Position numbers and translations under genes: made by a program
In this document: piece by piece, positions 51,328 through 62,875 of the stretch
Numbering within the stretch: the stretch's first letter is position 1
Layout: every line of letters begins with the position of its first letter
Assembly: GCA_049322915.1 (NCBI GenBank)
Contig: JBMOPW010000014.1
Coordinates: 1 to 64,000 of the forward strand
Source: Candidatus Zhuqueibacterota bacterium
GTDB taxonomy: Bacteria > Zhuqueibacterota > Zhuqueibacteria > Thermofontimicrobiales > Thermofontimicrobiaceae
Direction: 5' to 3'
Length of the DNA: 64,000 bases
The notes under the pieces: generated by a model
Database searches by the model: none
What the model was told of the DNA's origin: nothing
What the model saw: only the letters and a program-made list of their open reading frames with translations

Positions 51328-53940
51328 TCACTGAAAGAAGATCGGTGCAAAGCCCGTGAAATTCCGGTCGAAAGAAGCTTTCGGGCGGGAGAGATTTTCA
51401 AAAAGCAACGACGCTGAATAGCTGTAGGAAATGAGATAGTCAGACATCAGAAAGGAAAGCGTCCGATAGTCTTCAGTCTGCGGCGCTGGCGGCTGAGCTA
51501 ACAATGTCTCAAAGGGAAGATAACCCAACAGGCCATCCGGGATAATAATGAGGCGATGGCCGTACAGGTATGATTTTACGGGCGAGATTAAACAACAATA
51601 AAGCGTATGAGCGGCTATGCTGTAATCAGTAAAACTTTGTTGCAGTAATCCACTTCGCATTCGGTCCATTGATGCGGTGAAGCTATCATCGATGGAAATT
51701 GACCGTATTTCGAATGTAGTTTTGGTGATTGTAAAAATGAACAGCGTGCTATCGCTGAGGTAATACTCGATGATTCCTGTGTCTGAATCCAGTATCTTGT
51801 CCTGAATTTGTTTTGCGGTGGCGTTGGCGGTTTGATATGTTAAATTGTAATAGGCAGGGTAGTTCAGTTCGAAGGTATTGACAAGGCTTTCATAGTTTCG
51901 TTTTAACTGAAATAGCCTGTTTTGCAGTGACCTCACTCTTTCGCTATCTGCATCGGTTCCCTTTTGTGTTTCATCAAACAGGAGCTTGTCCGTGAATGAA
52001 AGATCGATTTTCAACTGTCGTTCAGTGTCCAGAAGGCTATCCGGGATGCCGGCGAATTTCCTGGCGTTGGATTCGATGAGCGCCTGATGCAGCGCGCCGG
52101 ACTTACTTTTCTCGGCAAAGGAGAATGCAACTTCTTTCAAGTCGTGCGCATGGGTGATGGTGTACAGCTCAAACACACTGGTAATTGCCTGACCGTAGAT
52201 GGAATGCATTTTTTCGCCCAGGAATAATTTCAAATTCTCTGATTTATAGCCGGTTCGAATGTGTTCAATGAGATCGGAAATTAAGGTGTACGTTACAACG
52301 GATGCCTCCAGATTTTCGATATGACTTCTGTCGTCCAAATATAATTCATTGAACAGCTCCGCTTTTCGGGTCAGGATATCCAGCAGTCTGGTCTCCTCGT
52401 TGAGCTGTGTGAGAGGAGGATTGACATAAACATTGTCGGAATCGAACCCTGGAAAAAGCGCGTGCAAGGCGCGTTGCAAACAGGATAGCGCTTTCCTGAT
52501 CCGATGTTGTCGGTGATAGACTTCAGCGATTTGCTGATACGCTTCTGCAATGAGCGGATGATTGTTGCCCCAGATACGTTGACTCAGGCTCACGGACTTA
52601 TTGAGATAATGAAGCGCTATGTTAAAATCGCCCAGATCTGTATAGAGAATTCCCATATTGTTGTAAATAATTGCCATGAGTGAATGCTGCTGTGTTGAAA
52701 GCTGCCTGGCCATGGAGAGCGCCTGCCTGTAATACTCAATCGCCCGATTAAAATCCTTTTTCAGCGAATAAATATTTGCAATGTTGAGCTGGCAGCGGAC
52801 AATATCCGGGTGAACCCGTTGCTCCATGCGCAGTTGCACGTTAAGGGATTGCTGGTAGTAATGAAGCGCCTCATCGTACATCTCCTTGTTTTTAGAGATT
52901 ATTCCCAGGTTGTTGTACAACGATGCAATTATCGGATGGGTGTCGCTAATCGTCACCATCACCAGCGATAACGATTTCTGAAAGTAAGCCTGCGCGTCTT
53001 CGAGGTTGCCTTTTCGGAGCCAGATAGTACCCAGATTCAGGTAATTTCCAGCCAGCGATGGGTGATTGCTGCCAAGTCTGTTCTGCACAATGCGGATGGA
53101 TTTTTCATAGCACTCAATGGCGCGGTCATAATCCCCTTTGGTGAAATGAAGCACGCCTAGGTTGAGGTAGCTGTTGGATACGTCCGGGTGGTTCTCCCCG
53201 ACTGCCTCCAGCCGGATGGCAAGTCCCTTTTGATAATAGGCCATCGCATTCTCGAAATCCTCTCTGGCAAGTGCGAGAATACCTAAATTGACATAACTGT
53301 CAGCGACCAAAGGGTGCGTCTGTTCATAGACTTTTTTTCGGATGGCTAATGCATCTTCATAAAATTCAGCAGCCTTGTCATACTGACCATAAAAATAGTT
53401 GACAATGCCCAGTCCGTGATAGCTATTCGCCAATTCTTCATCGTGGGCAGAATCGGTTTTTTTCAGTAGGCAAATTGCCTCGTGAAAAGCGCTTTCAGCC
53501 GCGGCTAAATCACCGCGCTTCTGAAAAATTATGCCGCGGGCGTTGAGGATTTTTACAGCCGGAATTTCATTCGTCGAAGTGAAAAGGGCGAGAATATGGG
53601 ATGCGCTGTCCACCTGGCTTTTTGCATCTTCATAGCGGCCCGATTTCACGAAGTTTGTGCTCTTGCCGCAGAGGCAATCGATTGCTTTTTCCCATTGCTC
53701 CTCTCGGATAAGTTGGTATAAAGCCAGATCATAATAATAATTAGAACTGTCGTAGAAGGCGGCGGTATGCAGCTTAGCCGCTCGCTGTAAACATTCAACC
53801 GCGGTAATCACGTCAACCCGGGTCTGATGCGACTGAAGCATCGGTACGTTTCTTTGATTTTTTATAGAATAGACGAGTCCACTGGCAAGAATGACGGTGA
53901 GCAAAATAGCAGTATATTTCCTGTAGTGTGGCTTTTTCAT
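51328..53940 (-). CDS. membrane-anchored TPR protein carrying only the N-terminal, non-catalytic part of a CHAT domain
   Basis: N-terminal TM; about 9-10 42-aa TPRs (HPxxAxSYxNLG); AFSFAEKSKS, IIEYY, LIIIPDGLLGYLPFETL and ISYSYSAS motifs; ends at FTGFAPIFFQ with no His/Cys dyad. Confidence 0.88.
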   Translation of the reverse strand: MKKPHYRKYTAILLTVILASGLVYSIKNQRNVPMLQSHQTRVDVITAVECLQRAAKLHTAAFYDSSNYYYDLALYQLIREEQWEKAIDCLCGKSTNFVKSGRYEDAKSQVDSASHILALFTSTNEIPAVKILNARGIIFQKRGDLAAAESAFHEAICLLKKTDSAHDEELANSYHGLGIVNYFYGQYDKAAEFYEDALAIRKKVYEQTHPLVADSYVNLGILALAREDFENAMAYYQKGLAIRLEAVGENHPDVSNSYLNLGVLHFTKGDYDRAIECYEKSIRIVQNRLGSNHPSLAGNYLNLGTIWLRKGNLEDAQAYFQKSLSLVMVTISDTHPIIASLYNNLGIISKNKEMYDEALHYYQQSLNVQLRMEQRVHPDIVRCQLNIANIYSLKKDFNRAIEYYRQALSMARQLSTQQHSLMAIIYNNMGILYTDLGDFNIALHYLNKSVSLSQRIWGNNHPLIAEAYQQIAEVYHRQHRIRKALSCLQRALHALFPGFDSDNVYVNPPLTQLNEETRLLDILTRKAELFNELYLDDRSHIENLEASVVTYTLISDLIEHIRTGYKSENLKLFLGEKMHSIYGQAITSVFELYTITHAHDLKEVAFSFAEKSKSGALHQALIESNARKFAGIPDSLLDTERQLKIDLSFTDKLLFDETQKGTDADSERVRSLQNRLFQLKRNYESLVNTFELNYPAYYNLTYQTANATAKQIQDKILDSDTGIIEYYLSDSTLFIFTITKTTFEIRSISIDDSFTASMDRMRSGLLQQSFTDYSIAAHTLYCCLISPVKSYLYGHRLIIIPDGLLGYLPFETLLAQPPAPQTEDYRTLSFLMSDYLISYSYSASLLFENLSRPKASFDRNFTGFAPIFFQ

Positions 53941-53941
53941 A

Positions 53942-54751
53942 TCATTCCACTGTGTGCGTGCGAAATTTTTTGATCAGCAGGAAGGCTGAAATGATGATGA
54001 GGACAATGGCTGGAATAATCCATTGCCAGTGATGACGCGCTGTACTGAGTTCCAGGGGAGATGTATCGCCGGTCAGGACAAAGCCAGCCCAGTAGTAGGG
54101 CGCTGATTTGATCTCTCCGGCATGGCGAAGATAGTTCAGTTTTGCGGTGCGAAGAGCAGCATCTTTGCTGGAACCCCGAATGAGTTCGGCATAGAAATCG
54201 GCCATGATGTGAGAAGTTGATTTGTCATCGACCGGCCACAAGCTCATCGCGATGCTCGGGCACCCTGCGTACATGAAGCTTCGCGCCAGGCTCATGATGC
54301 CTTCTCCCTGGACAAGTTTGCCGCTGCCGGTGTTGCATGCGCTTAAAACAGCCAAATGCGCGTTGAGTTCCAGATTGTAAAGCTCATAAGCGAACAGCTT
54401 ACCGTCCTCGGATAATGTGTCTTTCGGCGAGAAGGCTAAATAGCTGTACATCGGTTGAAGTTCATTGATAATCGTATGCGTTGCGAGATGGAGGATGCGC
54501 GACTTCGGGGCGTATTTCTTAAAATTCGCTTCGGTGGCCTGACGGCGCAGGAATACGTCTCCGCGAAGCAGATTGTCGATATTGCTCACCTCTTGTTCTG
54601 TCCAGGTCAAATCGTGAAGAGTTGCCTGGAGAGGCTCGGACAAAGGTTGATGAAAGGAGAGTTGCTCCTGAGCGAATAGCGAGTAATTTCCGGCAAAGAT
54701 CATTGCCAGAGCCAGCGCGAGCAGGCGCGTGTTAATCATTGGCATTTGCAC
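53942..54751 (-). CDS. exported catalytic C-terminal half of a CHAT (caspase-like) protease with C-terminal TM anchor
   Basis: Signal peptide (SLFA/Q); TEQEV, ATEANFK, LHLATH (His), VLSACNTG (Cys), SLWPVDD and PYYWAGF motifs; TM WIIPAIVLIIISAFLLI-KK. Confidence 0.9.
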   Translation of the reverse strand: MQMPMINTRLLALALAMIFAGNYSLFAQEQLSFHQPLSEPLQATLHDLTWTEQEVSNIDNLLRGDVFLRRQATEANFKKYAPKSRILHLATHTIINELQPMYSYLAFSPKDTLSEDGKLFAYELYNLELNAHLAVLSACNTGSGKLVQGEGIMSLARSFMYAGCPSIAMSLWPVDDKSTSHIMADFYAELIRGSSKDAALRTAKLNYLRHAGEIKSAPYYWAGFVLTGDTSPLELSTARHHWQWIIPAIVLIIISAFLLIKKFRTHTVE

Positions 54752-54888
54752 ACGAAGTAATGAAAATTCATAAGTGGGTCATTTCAGAAAAATGCTCACC
54801 GCGAGTCGATCTTGCGGCATCTGGAAGGAAACTGAATGTTAAACGCCCTGAAAAATTGAATTGTTTCTCACCCGAATGATGGTCCCGG

Positions 54889-55662
54889 CTATCGCTTTGT
54901 AAGGAGGTTCAAAATTTGTTCGCTCTGCTTTCTGTATTTGCTTGCCGCAGATACTGATTGAAATACCGCCATTGCCTCTGGAATTCGTTCCAGCCTTACC
55001 AGCGCCAGCCCCTGGTACCATTGCGCAGGATCGCGGTAGGGAGAACTGTGGGTTTTCATAATAGCCTCGAAGTGAGGAAGCGCCAGTTGTGGTGTGTCGT
55101 TGATTAGCTGGCACATCCCGGCATAAAAATGGGCGCCGGCGTTTCCTGGCTCGTGCGCTAATAGCTGATCCAATAATTGCTGGCAGGCGGCAATCTGATC
55201 TTTTTCATAGTTCAACATCGCCTGCAAGAAGAGACCCTGACTGGACTCTCCCCTGACGATCGGCGTGATATTCGGGTAAGCCTCGAAAAACTGATTGAAA
55301 ATTCGTTGGTGTGTCTGGTTTGTTTTTAGCAGAAGAAAAGAAGTCGCCAGAGCAACGATAACAAGCGCTGCCATTCCGTACCGCAGCATTGGGTTGCGCC
55401 AGCCTGATTTGGTGCGGCTGAGCCGTTGAGAGACCGAAGTCTGGAGGGCAGCTATGGCAGTGCGGAACTGTAACTCCCCGGCGCTTTTCTGAAATCCCTC
55501 GATGGCATCAGCGCAAAATGGGCAGTGGCGGATATGCAAGTCAATTTTCTCTTTCTGCTCAGGCCGAATGTTGTGTCTTGAATATGAAATGAGTTCATTC
55601 AGCGACAGACAATCCCCAACCGTGGACGCTTTGTCCTCGCAAGTAACATTTTTTTCATTCAT
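54889..55662 (-). CDS. zinc-finger (ZAS) transmembrane anti-sigma factor with periplasmic TPR domain
   Basis: CLS...HIRHCPFC (HxxxCxxC), one TM, then TPR-like repeats (AHFYAGM, AQWYQGLA); overlaps the ECF stop codon by 8 nt. Confidence 0.85.
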   Translation of the reverse strand: MNEKNVTCEDKASTVGDCLSLNELISYSRHNIRPEQKEKIDLHIRHCPFCADAIEGFQKSAGELQFRTAIAALQTSVSQRLSRTKSGWRNPMLRYGMAALVIVALATSFLLLKTNQTHQRIFNQFFEAYPNITPIVRGESSQGLFLQAMLNYEKDQIAACQQLLDQLLAHEPGNAGAHFYAGMCQLINDTPQLALPHFEAIMKTHSSPYRDPAQWYQGLALVRLERIPEAMAVFQSVSAASKYRKQSEQILNLLTKR

Positions 55663-56254
55663 CTTTTCGGAATTCCCTATCTTGAAGTAAAATATTCTTT
55701 AGGTTCCGCCTTCCATTCTGGATATGACTCTTCACTTTCCCGACCTCAAATCCGGTCGTGTCAGCGATATCCCTGTATGATTTCTTTTCGAAATAAAAAA
55801 GCAAGAGGCATTGGCGCTGCGCTTCAGTCAGTTGATTTAATGCGGCATGTACTTTCGATTCGATATCGCTTTGACCACTATTAAGAGTATCAAAGTCTTC
55901 AAATTCCATAAAAATATTTTTAAATTTTTCAGTTTTTTTCTGCTGAATATTTTCCTTCGTTTTATTTTTTCGAAGGTTATAGAGGCAAAAATTTTTTGTA
56001 ATTGAATACAACCAGCTACTAAAATTGGTCACCGGTTGTATTTTCAGCTTGGTCATGACTTTTTCGAAGATTTCCAGAACCGCATCCTTGCTGTCTTCCT
56101 CATTCCCGAAATATTTCAGGCAGGCGCCATAAACAAGGTGACAATAGCGCTGAAACAGCTCTTCAAAAGCAGCAATATCGCCGTGATCCCTGAACATCTG
56201 AACCAGTTCACGATCAGTTTTTTTCGTCATGAAATTTTTAAAATAGAATCGCAC
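55655..56254 (-). CDS. ECF RNA polymerase sigma factor
   Basis: Region 2 (AFEELFQRY...DSKDAVLEIF...FSSWLYSITKN) and region 4 (SYRDIADTTG...VKSHIQNGRRNLK). Confidence 0.95.
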   Translation of the reverse strand: MRFYFKNFMTKKTDRELVQMFRDHGDIAAFEELFQRYCHLVYGACLKYFGNEEDSKDAVLEIFEKVMTKLKIQPVTNFSSWLYSITKNFCLYNLRKNKTKENIQQKKTEKFKNIFMEFEDFDTLNSGQSDIESKVHAALNQLTEAQRQCLLLFYFEKKSYRDIADTTGFEVGKVKSHIQNGRRNLKNILLQDREFRKDE

Positions 56255-56447: not shown

Positions 56448-59400
56448 ATGTCACAAAAATGCTTTCATTTTTTGCTGGCAGCCTGTCTGCTGTTCCCGAT
56501 AGATGGCTACGGATTTGATAAGCAGGCGAAAACAAAAGCATCATCCACGCTGATAAAGCGTGATTCAGCCGTGATTGACGCCAACCAAATTTCAATGGTG
56601 GTGATGAACAATGGTACATTTGGCCGCGATCCGATGTCAGGAAGCGGAGCATTTTTCTTTCCAAAAGGAACGGATAAAAAATTACTCTATACGGCAGGAA
56701 TAGAAATCGCCGGAAAAGTGAACGGAGACATTCGAACTGCCTGCGCAAATTATAATGTCGAATTTCAGCCAGGAAAAATTTTATCGACCGGAGTGGCAGA
56801 CGATCCTGATTTGGAGAAATATCGAATTTACAAAATCAAACCGGGCGATTCCGCAGATCCGGCAAGTCCGAATTATAACATCGATTATGCCGAGTGGCCT
56901 GTCGAGGATGGCGCGCCGGTGGACGCGTCGGGAAGTCCGCTTATCCTCGGCGACCAGACGATGTGGCTCGTCATGAATGATGCAAATGAAAGCCTTCACT
57001 CCGGCTGCTATAACACAGAGCCGTTCAACCTTGAATTGCAGTTGCTGGTCTGGGCGTTCGACGATGAATCGACTGCAATGGGTAAAACTGTTTTTATGCA
57101 ATACACGCTGATCAATAAAAGCCAGAATTCTATCGAAGATGCCTATGTCGGGATTTGGTCTGACGCAGATGTGGGCGACTCCTTTGATGACGCCCTTGCC
57201 TGCGATACCACGCTGGATTTGACCTATGCCTACAATGGAGATGATAGCGATATGATGTACGGGACTGATATCCCGGCTGTTGGGATATGTTTGCTGCAAG
57301 GCCCTGCTGTGCCTTCCATCGGCGAAACAGCATTTCAATTTTTGCATATTCCAGTTTTGAACGCGCGGAATTTAAACATGACCTCAACCAGCGTCTATTA
57401 CTGAGCGCACGAACGATTCAGGGATCCTGAATATACGAGTCGCGGTGCGATTCAATTGTATGGCAATTTTGAAGGATTGGATTTTTTAGGCGATCCAACA
57501 GTCGATTTGTCTACTGGAGAGAATTCTCCTTTTATGAACAGCGGGAATCCTGTTTTTAATACCGGCTGGCTGCAGGACCTCTATATGAAGCCGTGCGATT
57601 TATATTTCCTGCAGGGCAGCGGTCCATTCTCACTCGCGCCTTTGGATACGCAGCGCGTTGTTTACGCAATCATTGTTGGTCATGGAGAAACACGACTGGA
57701 GAGCGTACTGGAATTGAAGCGCAATACAAATTTTATCAGGGATGTCTTTCGCAATGAATTTCAGATGAAAGCCTGGACAGAAACCGAGGTGCGCGTACCC
57801 TCCCAATCCAGGATGGAAATGGCGATTCGGTCAAAGGTGGAAACTGAGGTTGGTACTCAGTCCATTCAGGCGGATTTGCTCACGTACAGCGATTCCCTCG
57901 TCCGAACCATTGATCTGTACGACGATGGGACCCATGGCGATGCTCTAGCCAGCGATTATATTTTTAGCCATGCGCTGACGCTTGATGCGTTGCACCAGGC
58001 GCTTTACATCAACCTTCGAATCAAAGCCGTAAGCGGGAAAGAATATTCTTTCTTGCACGCTGCTGAAGACATCGCTGCGATTTATCCCGATGTTTTTATC
58101 TCTGAAATTGATGTGGCTGCGGATCATTTGAACAATGATGGAAAAATCAACCCCGGCGAGAATGTCCGATTATGCTTCCAGATTAAAAATGAACTGCCTT
58201 TTCCCATCACGTCATTGAATGTGCTGGTGCTACTGGATACGGCTCTTGTACAGGGCAATCCGGAGCATTTCTTTTTTAAGAATGTCGGGATGAATGAATT
58301 TGCGGAGATGGACTATGATCCAAATGACGAGTCGAGCTTTTATGAATTGGATGTCTCTCCGAATTTCCTGGCAGAAAATCCGTCAAATGACAGGATTGAT
58401 TTGAATGTCAAGTTCTATGTCAATGAACATCATATCTGGGATCAGAAATTCACCGTCTCATTGTCGGTTCAACCGCTGGAGCATATTCCCAATCTGGTAA
58501 TCCCTGCCCATATTTCCGGCTATAGCAGCGCCACGTTTGAAATCAGCGTCATCGATCCTGATCAGCTTACCGGGCATACCTATGCAATTACTGTGAGTGA
58601 TTCCATCAATGAGAACGGCGATCCGGGCTTCAATCTCATCGATCAAACATTGGGAGATACTTTGCTCAAACGTCACGAATTGCCGGACACCTATGCCTAC
58701 AATATTCCTATCACAGATGGATTTAAAGTGACCAGAGCCGTTCTGCCCGAAGTAGAACTCAGCGGGCATTTCGAGTCTTATTCCGGAGATGATTTGCGGC
58801 CATTTTATGGGATTAGCTACGACGCCAGTCTGTCGCCATCGATGGTGACATTCGGCGACGCGATCCCTGAACATTATTGCCCGGTGGAAATCGAATTCAC
58901 CAATCGCGTTGATTCCAGCGGTGTGGTTGGCGCTCTGCTTGGCCAGAGTGGATTTCAGCACACGGTATCTCCGCTGCACGGCATAGTCGGATTTTTCCCC
59001 TGTGGAATCAATGTCTGGAAAATTGTCAATAATCAAAGAGCCGGACGGTTGAACATCATCTTCCAGGAAGAATCGCCGTCGCTGCCAGCCTACGATGAAA
59101 CCTGGACTCCCGGCGAATGGCTTTATATCATGGCCAGCAATTACGATGCAACCGGGCAATTGTATCTGGGATTGACGGAAATTCCAATGGGCAGTCTGCT
59201 TTATAAAATGAATCTTTCTTTGAGAAGAGCGGAAAGCGCCGCCGGCATCGGGGATAAATTATATTTTGAACGTTGCTTTCTACCCACAGTTGACGATATG
59301 TGGTTATTCTCTCCCACAAACATTCTGGATGATGGGAATCGGCTTCCGACGCGATTTGAGTTGTACCAGAATTACCCCAATCCATTCAATCCCACGACCA

Positions 59401-59627
59401 CAATTCGATTTTCGATTCCGAAGCAATCACAGGTCAGTTTGAGAGTTTACAACATCCTGGGACAGGAGGTCGCGGACCTGTTCAATCGTATTGCTGGGCC
59501 CGGCGACTATGCTGTGAACTGGAATGGAAAAGATCGGTTCGGGCGGTCAGTTGTTTCAGGTATTTATTTTGCCAGATTTGAGACAAGTGCCGGGACGAGG
59601 TTGATAAAAATGGCGTTGATTCGATAG
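56448..59627 (+). CDS. secreted protein with T9SS/FlgD-type C-terminal domain; single 1059-codon frame interrupted by an in-frame TGA at 57402-57404 (recoded or pseudogene)
   Basis: ORFs 56448-57404 and 57456-59627 are in the same frame with only TGA between them. Homology to 59654-62875 runs across the stop. Signal peptide, GGAGGAG RBS, choice-of-anchor-X-like LYDDGTHGD, and C-terminal QNYPNPFNP. Confidence 0.8.
57402..57449 (+). other. in-frame UGA plus candidate bacterial SECIS element
   Basis: TGA, 11 nt, then ATTCAGG-GAT-CCTGAAT (57416-57432); lower stem CGCAC (57406-57410) with GTGCG (57445-57449). Confidence 0.45.
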
Positions 59628-59653: not shown

Positions 59654-62600
59654 GTGAAATACAAAATATTTCTTCTGATATTAGCCTTTCATTCATTTGT
59701 TTTCTCGGAAGAAAATAAAATCAATTCGCTGAAGAAACCTGCGGTCTACTCCTCCAAATATTTTGACGTCAACAGAATTGTCTGTTCGGTGCATAACGAC
59801 GGCATTATTGCCAGGCACCCCATCAGCGGGAACAGCGATTTTAAATTTGACGACGATTACCTGGTTTACACCTCCGGCCTGTGGCTGGCCGCCAAAGTGA
59901 ACGGCGCAGTCAGGGCTTCGGCGGCAGATTTCAACACGGACTGGATTGGCGGCGCCATCGATGAATTTGGGAATCCGTTCGGCAAGGAAGACTCCACGTT
60001 CCGCGTTTACAAAATTTCCCGCGGGGATAATGCGGCCACAAACCCGGATTACGCGCAGTGGCCGTCGCAGTTGGGAGCGCCAACCGATGCCCAGGGCAAT
60101 CCGCTGATCTTGGGCGATCAAACACTGTGGTGCAGTTTCACGGATGCGTTCGTCGATGAAAGGATTTGGTACAATATCTGTCCACCGTTAGGCGCAGAGG
60201 TTCATTTAATGGTTTGGGGCTGGAACGAAGTTGATAACGCAATTTTTGTTCGATATGAAATTATCAATAAAAGCGCTGCAATATGGGAAGATACATACTT
60301 TGGTATGTATTCGGATCCTGATGTGGGTGACGCCAACAACGATTTAACCGGGAGCGACAGCACGTTGAGCCTTGTTTACTGTTACGATAATGAAAAGACC
60401 AATTATTATAATAGTAATTATTCTGTGGGGTATGTTTTGTTGGAATCCCCACTAATTCCTTCGACGGGCGATACAGCATTCACCTGGTGGGGCAGAAGAT
60501 TTGATTTTCAAAATGCGCCAATTTACGCGCCGCGCATAGAAAAACACGATTCATATGGATGGGGAGAGGTTAGTTATACATCGAGTGAAACCGCTACCCA
60601 AATTTACAATCGGCTGCAATGTTTGAGTTACAAGGGAGAGCCTGCCATTAATCCAGTAACAAATCTACCGACAAAATGGACTTATTCGGGCGAACCTGTC
60701 ACAGAGACTGGCTGGATCGATAATATTTATCCTCCACGGGACAGGCGAATGATGCTGTCCACAGGGCCGGTCACACTGGCTCCGGGCGATACAGCCGCAA
60801 TCACACTGGCGATTATGGCGGTTCAGCGCAACAAAACAATGGATACGATCGTGGATGTGAAGAGCAATGCTGGGGCGGCGCTGGAGGCCTTTCAAAATGG
60901 CGCCGGCTTATATTCGGAAAAAAAATATGCACCGCCTGGTCAGCAGGGGCTGCTCGTACCAATTCGATTGCTGAATTTTCGGGAATTAGAGAAGCTGGAA
61001 TTTACAATTCGTTGGGAAAAGGAAAAACTGATTTTTCGTGACATCGAACCGGTCAATCGAGCGAAGAATTTTTCTGTGAACTCGGATCAGATCAACCCAG
61101 GAACGACGCGCGTTGAATTGGTGAATCCTGTCTCGGAAGCACTTTCTGTCGGAAATGGAGAGATATTTCAAATCGAATTTGATGTTGCCGTGAATGGGGA
61201 AAGCGAGTTGGTTGATTTTCGAATTAGCAACACGAGCGCAATGGACATCGATGGAAATTTACTAAATCTGAAATCAATCACTAACACAATCGAGATTGAG
61301 CAAATGCATCCGCCGCCGCGGTTGTACACGCCGCCCAATGGTCACTATCTGGATGGAATGAATGTTCAATTCTCCTGGTCGCGAGCCGGAAAAGATAGTG
61401 AAAACTTCACGTACCTGAAATTCGAAAATGATACATGGTCAAAAGTGACAGTTTTTGATACGACCCTGACCATGCCCATGAGGGAATTTGTTTTCAATTC
61501 GAACAGGCCGGATCCAATTGGCTGGTATGTGGCAGTGATGGACTATTCCGAGCCTCTGCTGTCTGTGGAAAAATATTATTTCAGCGTCCCTTCTGTTGAG
61601 GAGTTGAGTTTTGCGCGCCAAATAGTGGAATGCGATATTTCAGATACGACCATTGCCTGGCCGAGAGTGGAAAAATTAGCCATTCAGCTTCCCTACTTTT
61701 ATCTCATCAAGGCGATAGATTTAGGAACGGAGCGTTATGAGCTAACCGTACTTCGACTTTCTCAAAATAATTTCCAACTGGTGAATAAGCAGGATCTGTC
61801 TCCGTTTCTTTTTGATGGGCAATTGATCGTTTCGGGAGACAGGGCATTTTCGTATTATAACAGCCTCATTTACATGTATACCATCAACCAAAATCAGCAA
61901 TTCGTTTTTGATAAATATGCGACCGTGGATTCTCCCATCGGTGTTCTTTTGAAAAATGAAGAGTATTTTTACATTCTCTCGAAGGAAAATTCAGCGCCTA
62001 ACATATTAATCTATAAAGTGAATGAATGGGGAGACCTGGTAAAACTGAGTGAAATTTCCCTGGCTGGCTGGTCCGATGAAACAAGAGAGAGCTCGGGAGA
62101 AGCCATTCGCCTGAAAGACGGGCGGTTGTTTGTGGCCTACGGCGACTGGGGAATTTTCGATGTGTCCGATCCGGGTGCGCCACAGTTATTGGTGCGGTGC
62201 GATATTCCTGATGAGGCAGCGTCCATTGACTACGAAGATGGCAAGGTATATGTCGGTGGTGATAATTACTGGTTGGGTATTTATGACATAACTTCATCTG
62301 AAAATCCGCTGCTTGTTTATAGCGAAACGGTCGAGGATTCGTGGAATGATTGGGCCAAACATCTATCTGTTTATGAAGGAAAGGTATACCTGCATGACCG
62401 ATGGAGAATGCAGGTTTGCCATTATGAACCGGGCAGGGGATTCGTCATCGATGGAATTTTCAATCAGCGCGAATTAGTAAAAATGTTTCAGGATCGAATC
62501 TATGTTATCGACTGGCGATGGGATTGGCAAACGACAATCAGCATCTATGAAAACAGTTTTGTTTCTCGGTGTAATTCGAAGGAAAATGGGGATGCAGTGA

Positions 62601-62875
62601 AGTTCAATTTGGTACAAAACTACCCCAATCCATTCAACGACCGAACGCAAATACATTTTGATGTAGAGAGAACCGCCCAGGTCGCAGTGACGATTTACAA
62701 CATTCATGGCCAAAAAGTAAAAACGTTGCTTGCCGAAGTGAAAGCAGCCGGCAGCCATAGACTGGAATGGGATGGGAAAAATGATGCCGGGCGAACAGTC
62801 GCATCCGGGGTGTATCTGTGCGAGTTGCGCGCCAGTGATCGTTCCAGCATAAAAAAAATATTGCTTTTAAAATGA
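59654..62875 (+). CDS. secreted paralog of the upstream gene with cohesin-like and LVIVD-like propeller regions and T9SS/FlgD-type C-terminal domain
   Basis: Shared N-domain (YKISRGD...NPDYAQWP...GAP...PLILGDQTLW, SDPDVGD); FDVSDPGAP repeats; QNYPNPFN...WDGKNDAGRTVASGVY. Confidence 0.85.
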   Translation: MKYKIFLLILAFHSFVFSEENKINSLKKPAVYSSKYFDVNRIVCSVHNDGIIARHPISGNSDFKFDDDYLVYTSGLWLAAKVNGAVRASAADFNTDWIGGAIDEFGNPFGKEDSTFRVYKISRGDNAATNPDYAQWPSQLGAPTDAQGNPLILGDQTLWCSFTDAFVDERIWYNICPPLGAEVHLMVWGWNEVDNAIFVRYEIINKSAAIWEDTYFGMYSDPDVGDANNDLTGSDSTLSLVYCYDNEKTNYYNSNYSVGYVLLESPLIPSTGDTAFTWWGRRFDFQNAPIYAPRIEKHDSYGWGEVSYTSSETATQIYNRLQCLSYKGEPAINPVTNLPTKWTYSGEPVTETGWIDNIYPPRDRRMMLSTGPVTLAPGDTAAITLAIMAVQRNKTMDTIVDVKSNAGAALEAFQNGAGLYSEKKYAPPGQQGLLVPIRLLNFRELEKLEFTIRWEKEKLIFRDIEPVNRAKNFSVNSDQINPGTTRVELVNPVSEALSVGNGEIFQIEFDVAVNGESELVDFRISNTSAMDIDGNLLNLKSITNTIEIEQMHPPPRLYTPPNGHYLDGMNVQFSWSRAGKDSENFTYLKFENDTWSKVTVFDTTLTMPMREFVFNSNRPDPIGWYVAVMDYSEPLLSVEKYYFSVPSVEELSFARQIVECDISDTTIAWPRVEKLAIQLPYFYLIKAIDLGTERYELTVLRLSQNNFQLVNKQDLSPFLFDGQLIVSGDRAFSYYNSLIYMYTINQNQQFVFDKYATVDSPIGVLLKNEEYFYILSKENSAPNILIYKVNEWGDLVKLSEISLAGWSDETRESSGEAIRLKDGRLFVAYGDWGIFDVSDPGAPQLLVRCDIPDEAASIDYEDGKVYVGGDNYWLGIYDITSSENPLLVYSETVEDSWNDWAKHLSVYEGKVYLHDRWRMQVCHYEPGRGFVIDGIFNQRELVKMFQDRIYVIDWRWDWQTTISIYENSFVSRCNSKENGDAVKFNLVQNYPNPFNDRTQIHFDVERTAQVAVTIYNIHGQKVKTLLAEVKAAGSHRLEWDGKNDAGRTVASGVYLCELRASDRSSIKKILLLK

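Follow-up and report, generated by a model that had tools for sequence, protein, structure and literature searches.

Does a TGA triplet in the middle of a long bacterial reading frame end the protein, or is it read as an amino acid? This question is raised by a gene on the forward strand of the 64,000-nt stretch of Candidatus Zhuqueibacterota DNA analysed here (the window; positions 1 to 64,000 of contig JBMOPW010000014.1, assembly GCA_049322915.1). The gene is interrupted at codon 319 by an in-frame TGA that is followed by a short hairpin. An initial annotation, made from the letters of the window, proposed selenocysteine (Sec) at codon 319. In this study, we compared the locus with its orthologs and with the rest of the genome, and the proposal is supported by the Sec machinery, a conserved TGA, orthologs with Cys at the same position and hairpins. 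On this sequence-based evidence, the UGA at 57402-57404 is very probably a genuine Sec codon, which would be read by ordinary bacterial decoding and would define a new selenoprotein family. The comparative evidence, and not the hairpin in the window, is decisive for this reading. The features on which it turns are the following.

56448-59627, + strand: whole candidate selenoprotein gene of 1059 codons and a terminal stop, with a single UGA inside
57402-57404, + strand: UGA predicted to be read as selenocysteine (U319), with TGA or Cys at the aligned column in orthologs
57416-57432, + strand: SECIS-like stem-loop (SECIS, selenocysteine insertion sequence) of 7 bp with loop GAU, starting 11 nt after the UGA
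57406-57449, + strand: possible lower stem enclosing the hairpin, CGCAC (57406-57410) with GTGCG (57445-57449), from the minimum free energy (MFE) fold
57594-57596, + strand: codon of Cys383 (PCD motif), putative selenenylsulfide partner of U319, from co-occurrence and joint loss in one lineage
59654-62875, + strand: adjacent paralog of 1073 amino acids (aa), without Sec or Cys at the site and without the partner Cys

The two open reading frames (ORFs) at 56448-57404 (318 aa) and 57456-59627 (723 aa) lie in the same frame. Read through from 56448 to 59627, they give a protein of 1059 aa in which U319, in the sequence context YYUAHERF, is the only stop before the end. The alignment of this protein with the adjacent paralog (32% identity over 457 columns, E 9e-65) is continuous across the stop, and the paralog has no Cys at the site aligned to U319. 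The initial annotation was therefore correct in describing a single frame with homology on both sides of the TGA, and also in stating that the paralog lacks Cys there. In the public annotation, the gene appears as two proteins, P0124 (318 aa) and P0067 (697 aa), and the annotated restart of P0067 is located within the N-terminal domain of the read-through protein.

The initial annotation also warned that the TGA might be a sequencing error or a point mutation. This concern is countered by the reads and by the orthologs described below. The TGA is present in the probable source sequencing run at a depth of about 84. From an independent study there is a contig across 57202-57442; it differs at four positions, all outside the TGA and the hairpin. 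A further run, X3, covers 57151-57301 only, short of the TGA.

Orthologs were searched for in 41 genomes, including the source genome (G000). In eight of the 41, a full-length or long ortholog has exactly one in-frame TGA, and all of these TGAs are found in the same column, after YY. When metagenome and genome contigs were added, the number of distinct TGA orthologs was 13, at 52-83% identity. Cys occupies the U319 column in orthologs of five genomes (G021, G026, G031, G032 and G102), in three metagenome or genome loci (L104, L175 and L176) and, as YYC, in eight intact database homologs at 49-55% identity. The column therefore holds Cys or TGA, as the Sec proposal had foreseen, and Trp was found there in none of the aligned orthologs and homologs. 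The next paralog clade has Asn at this position. From the TGA to the TTG at 57456 there are 17 codons, which stay in frame and whose protein sequence is conserved across the aligned orthologs.

Public protein databases hold the same pattern in another form. Of the 44 proteins that match the 318-aa upstream ORF best, which are 53-100% identical and each form a separate 90% cluster, 43 end at YY or FY directly before the U319 column. The 120 hits of 582-1854 aa are all at most 60% identical, whereas the fragments reach 80%, and among these matches the Sec forms were therefore found only as split gene calls. The conservation of the in-frame TGA itself lies far beyond chance. A 45-row tree placed the 38 rows of the Sec/Cys clade apart from the Asn paralogs with support of 100/100. 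Within the clade, five changes were counted for Sec (13 rows) and three for Cys (14 rows), so the Sec and Cys forms are interleaved.

Some more distant or divergent loci were also observed in the course of these comparisons. A metagenome contig (L144, locus position 1522) encodes a distant paralog with 35% identity, in which a TGA again falls in the U319 column (KYT*YHPDWCNP); this paralog has only a weak downstream hairpin, no Cys at the C383 column and a Cys six residues after the stop. Four representatives with about 40% identity and lengths of 289-335 aa (P0217, P0226, P0227 and P0262) end in YY or YI at the Sec column, so that recoding at this site may reach into other subfamilies. In genome G010, a tandem array (L052, C16:61500-76500) holds about five family paralogs, including a TGA form (YY*GYPRF) and a Ser form in which both other cysteines are retained, and the same genome has a deletion form of the family on contig C64. 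Another locus (L053, G024:C236, about 1603-2088) has an in-frame TGA at a different position (FAGFA*GRF), which could be either a pseudogene mutation or a second Sec site.

Reading UGA as Sec calls for a dedicated machinery, and the initial annotation named the genes concerned. All of them were found in the genome (6.25 Mb, 45 contigs), with matches above the curated cut-offs throughout: selA (561.6 bits), selB (364.6 bits), two copies of selD and a tRNA-Sec (63 bits, anticodon TCA), which ARAGORN also detects as tRNA-SeC (TCA). One selD copy, on contig C2, has an in-frame TGA of its own. An Fdh-alpha-like gene and a peroxiredoxin gene of the same genome also contain a single in-frame TGA, in both cases at the classical site. 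The second selD copy (C14:562220-563146, outside the window) is free of stops and lies in an open frame of 736 aa, which suggests a fusion protein. Among the genomes with a TGA-form ortholog, selA is present in eight of eight. TGA is also the commonest stop of the genome, where it closes 1345 of the 3056 open frames of at least 300 codons. A stop between two long open frames is TGA in 825 cases, TAA in 677 and TAG in 274, so that TGA is not over-represented at such places. These results indicate that the code is not globally reassigned, as had been proposed from the genes of the window.

E. coli fdhF is the paradigm of a SelB/SECIS-decoded gene, and the bacterial SECIS consensus is a stem-loop just downstream of the UGA with a G near the start of the apical loop. 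The U319 gene resembles bacterial genes of this kind in its in-frame UGA, in a stem-loop about 11-14 nt downstream with a small loop that starts with G, in the presence of selA, selB, selD and tRNA-Sec in the genome, and in its Cys-containing homologs. It differs from them in belonging to an unrelated protein family. As originally described, the UGA is followed by a spacer of 11 nt (57405-57415) and then by ATTCAGG (57416-57422), GAT (57423-57425) and CCTGAAT (57426-57432), with CGCAC and GTGCG able to pair outside. A comparison with the organism's own SECIS elements had also been proposed. The layout resembles that of the selD and fdhA-like hairpins of the genome, which have a spacer of 12 or 14, a stem of 8 or 9 bp and a triloop of GGA or GGC, in contrast to the weaker stem at U319 of 7 bp and -6.0 kcal/mol.

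We then compared the hairpins across the orthologs, where they had been expected to accompany the TGA. They do so in all 13 of the TGA orthologs, each with a single stem-loop that starts 7-11 nt after the TGA and has an energy of -4.5 to -9.8 kcal/mol. At least three different constructions of the stem occur, and their 3' arms come from non-homologous codons. One type has ATTCAGG/CCTGAAT arms, and in its L098 variant inner pairs are lost and the stem is extended outward. In a second type, the arms are GCGGTT(C)/(G)AACCGC. The third has GCGGTAT…ATAACCGC arms and a long loop, and draws its 3' arm from codons five positions further on. In Cys forms that encode similar residues (RF.QP), the codons do not pair. 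The Fisher-combined p from synonymous shuffles was 0.0015 for eight TGA genes and 0.024 when one gene per hairpin class was taken, compared with 0.78 for 18 non-TGA homologs, and the stem-loops of TGA and non-TGA genes differed in a Mann-Whitney comparison (p = 0.02). Between G000 and L094, identical residues in codons +4 to +10 are encoded by identical codons in six of six cases, compared with 63 of 138 elsewhere. The statistical support for SECIS-like hairpins across the orthologs is moderate.

Several observations weigh against a Sec codon at this site, and many of them concern the hairpin in the window. The region 57395-57470 folds at -18.4 kcal/mol with z = -1.06, and 26 of 200 shuffles were as stable. 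When the 48-nt MFE was compared with synonymous shuffles, the window gave p = 0.059, and none of the eight TGA genes was significant (p 0.059-0.54). Plain folding energy was replaced by a positional single-stem-loop statistic, with which the small window hairpin (-6.0 kcal/mol) gave a synonymous-shuffle p of 0.31. A strict motif (7 Watson-Crick pairs, a loop of 3-5 nt, G in the first two loop bases and a spacer of 8-14) occurs downstream of 234 of the 264,392 TGA triplets in the genome. Among the 827 TGAs flanked on each side by at least 100 open codons, it follows only one, the U319 site, and 0.73 would be expected by chance. The hairpin alone is therefore insufficient to carry the Sec claim. 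A search of 57350-57520 against Rfam gave no matches at E ≤ 10. The initial annotation was thus correct about the presence of the hairpin but gave it more weight than folding, shuffles and the genome scan allow it when taken alone.

The remaining points on this side come from the wider comparison. A G is found in the first two loop bases of only nine of the 13 ortholog hairpins, and three of eight distinct non-TGA members of the clade reach similar energies, as long irregular folds. Co-occurrence of selA with the TGA forms discriminates weakly because 130 of 167 genomes of the phylum carry selA (a count that takes in the unpublished G158 and G162). The U319 column is variable in the wider family, with Asn, Gly and deletions, and close homologs have lost Sec or Cys; Sec is therefore not essential to the fold. 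Finally, the protein has no UxxC or CxxU motif and no thioredoxin fold, unlike most known selenoproteins (PMC13188914).

A conserved UGA might instead be a programmed stop, which would give a secreted N-terminal fragment of 318 aa and an internally started C-terminal protein, or a site of regulated read-through that does not involve Sec. Conservation of the triplet is expected for a functional stop as well, gene callers do yield two proteins (P0124 of 318 aa and P0067 of 697 aa), and the TTG at 57456 could start the second ORF. We nevertheless regard this as unlikely. The TGA is located inside a single confident domain (aa 37-440, pLDDT 91.8; predicted local distance difference test) that is continuous in all intact homologs, and the annotated 697-aa protein restarts inside that domain. 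The 17 codons from the TGA to the TTG are in frame and conserved as protein, and orthologs have Cys at the column, not a stop. Of the two separate products, the second would lack a signal peptide and the first a tail for the type IX secretion system (T9SS).

It is less probable again that the UGA is read as Trp, Gly or Cys through a suppressor tRNA or an altered code. Such decoding would equally produce a full-length homolog, and Cys at the aligned column would agree with UGA read as Cys. However, TGA is the commonest stop and shows no excess between long frames, tRNA-Sec is the only specialised UGA decoder found among those looked for, no ortholog has Trp at the column, and the hairpins would be left unexplained. 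A pseudogene, or a TGA arising from an error of sequencing or assembly, is extremely improbable and in effect already refuted. One base change from TGY or TGG is enough to produce TGA, and the adjacent paralog is intact. Against this, the same TGA is found in 13 distinct orthologs down to 52% identity and at the end of 43 of 44 public fragments, both halves of the gene are conserved as protein, and the independent contig agrees with a run of about 84-fold depth. A genuine Sec codon is the reading that we prefer.

With U319 as a Sec codon, the UGA at 57402-57404 would be decoded by SelB together with Sec-tRNA(Sec). These would be recruited by the stem-loop 11 nt downstream, to which SelB presumably binds. 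The 1059-aa product would be exported, with an N-terminal signal peptide for the first step and the T9SS, through the C-terminal sorting domain, for the second. In the exported protein, U319 may act as a pair with Cys383 in a supersandwich domain, most likely as a selenenylsulfide.

The initial annotation suggested that a nearby Cys, in the motif KPCDLY, could be the partner of Sec. This residue is C383, and it proved to be the best co-varying Cys. The co-variation set consisted of 258 unique homologs anchored on the query, and in 34 of them the Sec column shows a Cys or a stop. C383 (column 184) had a phi of 0.74 with the Sec/Cys column, and the next best Cys column had 0.38. Both positions were occupied in 25 homologs, the Sec/Cys column only in nine, Cys383 only in six and neither in 218. 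In one lineage, the pair decays stepwise, from Ser with C383 kept (P0018), through Arg/Gly (P0004), to a loop deletion with Gly or His. In L101 and the distant L144, two TGA forms that lack C383, the R325 position is occupied by a Cys. From the co-variation, the stepwise decay and the Cys at the R325 position, we infer a Sec-Cys couple. The two residues are 64 residues apart in sequence. In the AlphaFold2 (AF2) model, U319 comes directly after the strand 313-318 and C383 before the strand 385-396, with a local pLDDT of at least 94. A pairing of U319 with C383, most likely as a selenenylsulfide, would bring the two into contact.

For the role of this pair, a redox-active Sec with C383 as its resolving Cys is about evenly balanced between true and false in our judgement. 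A structural selenenylsulfide staple, in which Sec would be non-catalytic, is a more tentative possibility, and metal binding or another role is rather unlikely. We know of no bacterial selenoprotein in which a structural role of Sec has been established.

We next considered the architecture of the read-through protein, which was divided as follows.

56448-56510, + strand: probable N-terminal signal peptide, about aa 1-21, with an approximate end; hydrophobic N-terminus
56556-57767, + strand: N-terminal domain (N-domain), aa 37-440, galactose-mutarotase-like beta-supersandwich that holds U319 and C383; AF2 and VIA-align
57810-59372, + strand: middle region, aa 455-975, all-beta, with Ig/MG-like sandwiches; AF2 and VIA-align
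59373-59609, + strand: T9SS type A C-terminal sorting domain, aa 976-1054; TIGR04183 and structural match

The AF2 model of aa 1-470 had a pLDDT of 91.8 and a predicted template modelling score (pTM) of 0.87, and starts with a helix (3-14) and a low-confidence linker (19-35). With VIA-align, the N-domain matched dextran dextrinase 9ju0 (Z 19.1, 251 aa, 3.2 Å), the N-domains of the glycoside hydrolase family 15 (GH15) proteins 1ulv (Z 18.1) and 1lf6 (Z 17.9), another carbohydrate-enzyme N-domain (Z 18.3) and, at Z of about 13, aldose 1-epimerases. Foldseek gave low TM scores only (0.34-0.38), which agree weakly with a supersandwich. The domain shares its predicted fold with the supersandwich N-domains of GH15 glucodextranase/glucoamylase (1ulv, 1lf6), dextran dextrinase (9ju0) and GH94/GH65 phosphorylases, to which it is aligned over 231-251 residues at 2.9-3.2 Å with Z of 17.9-19.1. 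It differs from them in that identity is at most 10% and in that no (alpha/alpha)6 catalytic domain follows, because the remainder of the protein is all-beta. To our knowledge, none of these carbohydrate enzymes is a selenoprotein.

Sequence profiles contributed little to the N-domain. Pfam and NCBIfam matched nothing in aa 1-950, the sequence profile against the PDB matched the C-terminal tail only, and the ESM Atlas gave unnamed clusters only for the natural Cys homolog P0012. The N-domain family is nevertheless very large: at E ≤ 1e-3 it comprises 5634 representative clusters, and at E ≤ 1e-30 it comprises 900. Neither Pfam nor NCBIfam has a model for it. Judged by record titles, its members come from phyla of the FCB group, and the nearest homologs carry the source names KSB1 and Calditrichaeota/Calditrichota. 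The model of aa 455-1059 is all-beta with a pLDDT of 90.1, and its residues 91-224 matched MG/HAP2-type domains at Z of about 9. No catalytic domain was recognised in this all-beta part, of which aa 681-958 were barely tested.

The initial annotation described the product as a secreted, T9SS-like cargo protein. The C-terminus matched TIGR04183 with 35.5 bits (cut-off 23), and the last domain matched the C-terminal domains of PorU (Z 11.0) and PorZ (Z 9.8). The genome encodes T9SS machinery, with two PorU homologs (868.7 and 818.5 bits; cut-off 420) and SprA (712.8 bits). These results uphold the description, and by its sequence and predicted structure the 1059-aa protein is classed as a T9SS type A cargo. 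The two full-length PorU sortase genes stand in tandem at C7:386485-394032. A PorU/C25-like ORF with a T9SS tail (C44:176573-179545) had also been flagged for a single TGA, at C44:176681; it is not a Sec site because this TGA, like three others, lies in non-coding sequence ahead of the gene start.

A 2026 review lists 119 selenoprotein families and subfamilies in its Table 1 (PMC13188914). Among these 119 entries there is no T9SS cargo and no mutarotase-like protein. The table does include envelope or exported selenoproteins, namely a TonB-dependent receptor, an outer-membrane barrel of the MtrB/PioB type, ExtKL, substrate-binding proteins and a selenobacteriocin. The initial view that the class was new among selenoproteins thus stands for the U319 family, but not for exported selenoproteins in general. 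In NCBIfam release 20.0, no selenoprotein model matched the protein, and only the T9SS tail did. In the parts consulted of the deep-Sep (PMC12013277), BSepDB (PMC13326102) and KSB1 (PMC9012183) papers, such a family is not mentioned. In literature searches on secreted or T9SS selenoproteins and on selenocysteine in KSB1/Calditrichota, nothing on the U319 family came up. A close parallel in kind is the outer-membrane barrel selenoprotein reported from Desulfosarcina, which is also a large, beta-rich envelope protein without a thioredoxin fold, with one computationally predicted Sec and with both TGA and Cys homologs. The two differ in that the Desulfosarcina protein is a barrel with a local CxxU, whereas the U319 protein is a T9SS cargo with a supersandwich and a partner Cys 64 residues away.

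The neighbourhood of the gene was also examined. Divergent genes upstream, at 51328-56254 on the minus strand, encode an ECF sigma-70 factor, a TPR protein and two ORFs with CHAT domains. The 870-aa CHAT ORF has long TPR arrays, and the CHAT domain appears to be divided over 51328-53940 and 53942-54751. None of the genes nearby (ECF sigma factor, TPR, CHAT, acyltransferase, FakA-like and RtcA) gave a clue to function.

If U319 is Sec, the family would depart from the usual selenoprotein pattern, as a large surface protein exported by the T9SS that is not thioredoxin-like. A Sec paired with a Cys 64 residues away, in a domain of the carbohydrate-enzyme type, would also be an unusual arrangement. 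The finding would expose a systematic annotation error, with at least 43 distinct public protein clusters truncated at the U319 codon. The natural Sec, Cys and loss variants would provide a comparison set for the contribution of Sec. Should the staple be true, it would hold an extracellular domain of the glycan-binding type together in reducing, anoxic habitats in which a disulfide would be reduced, and the Cys-Cys and double-loss forms would represent lineages with a relaxed need. These results suggest that the use of selenium in bacteria may be wider than cytoplasmic redox enzymes.

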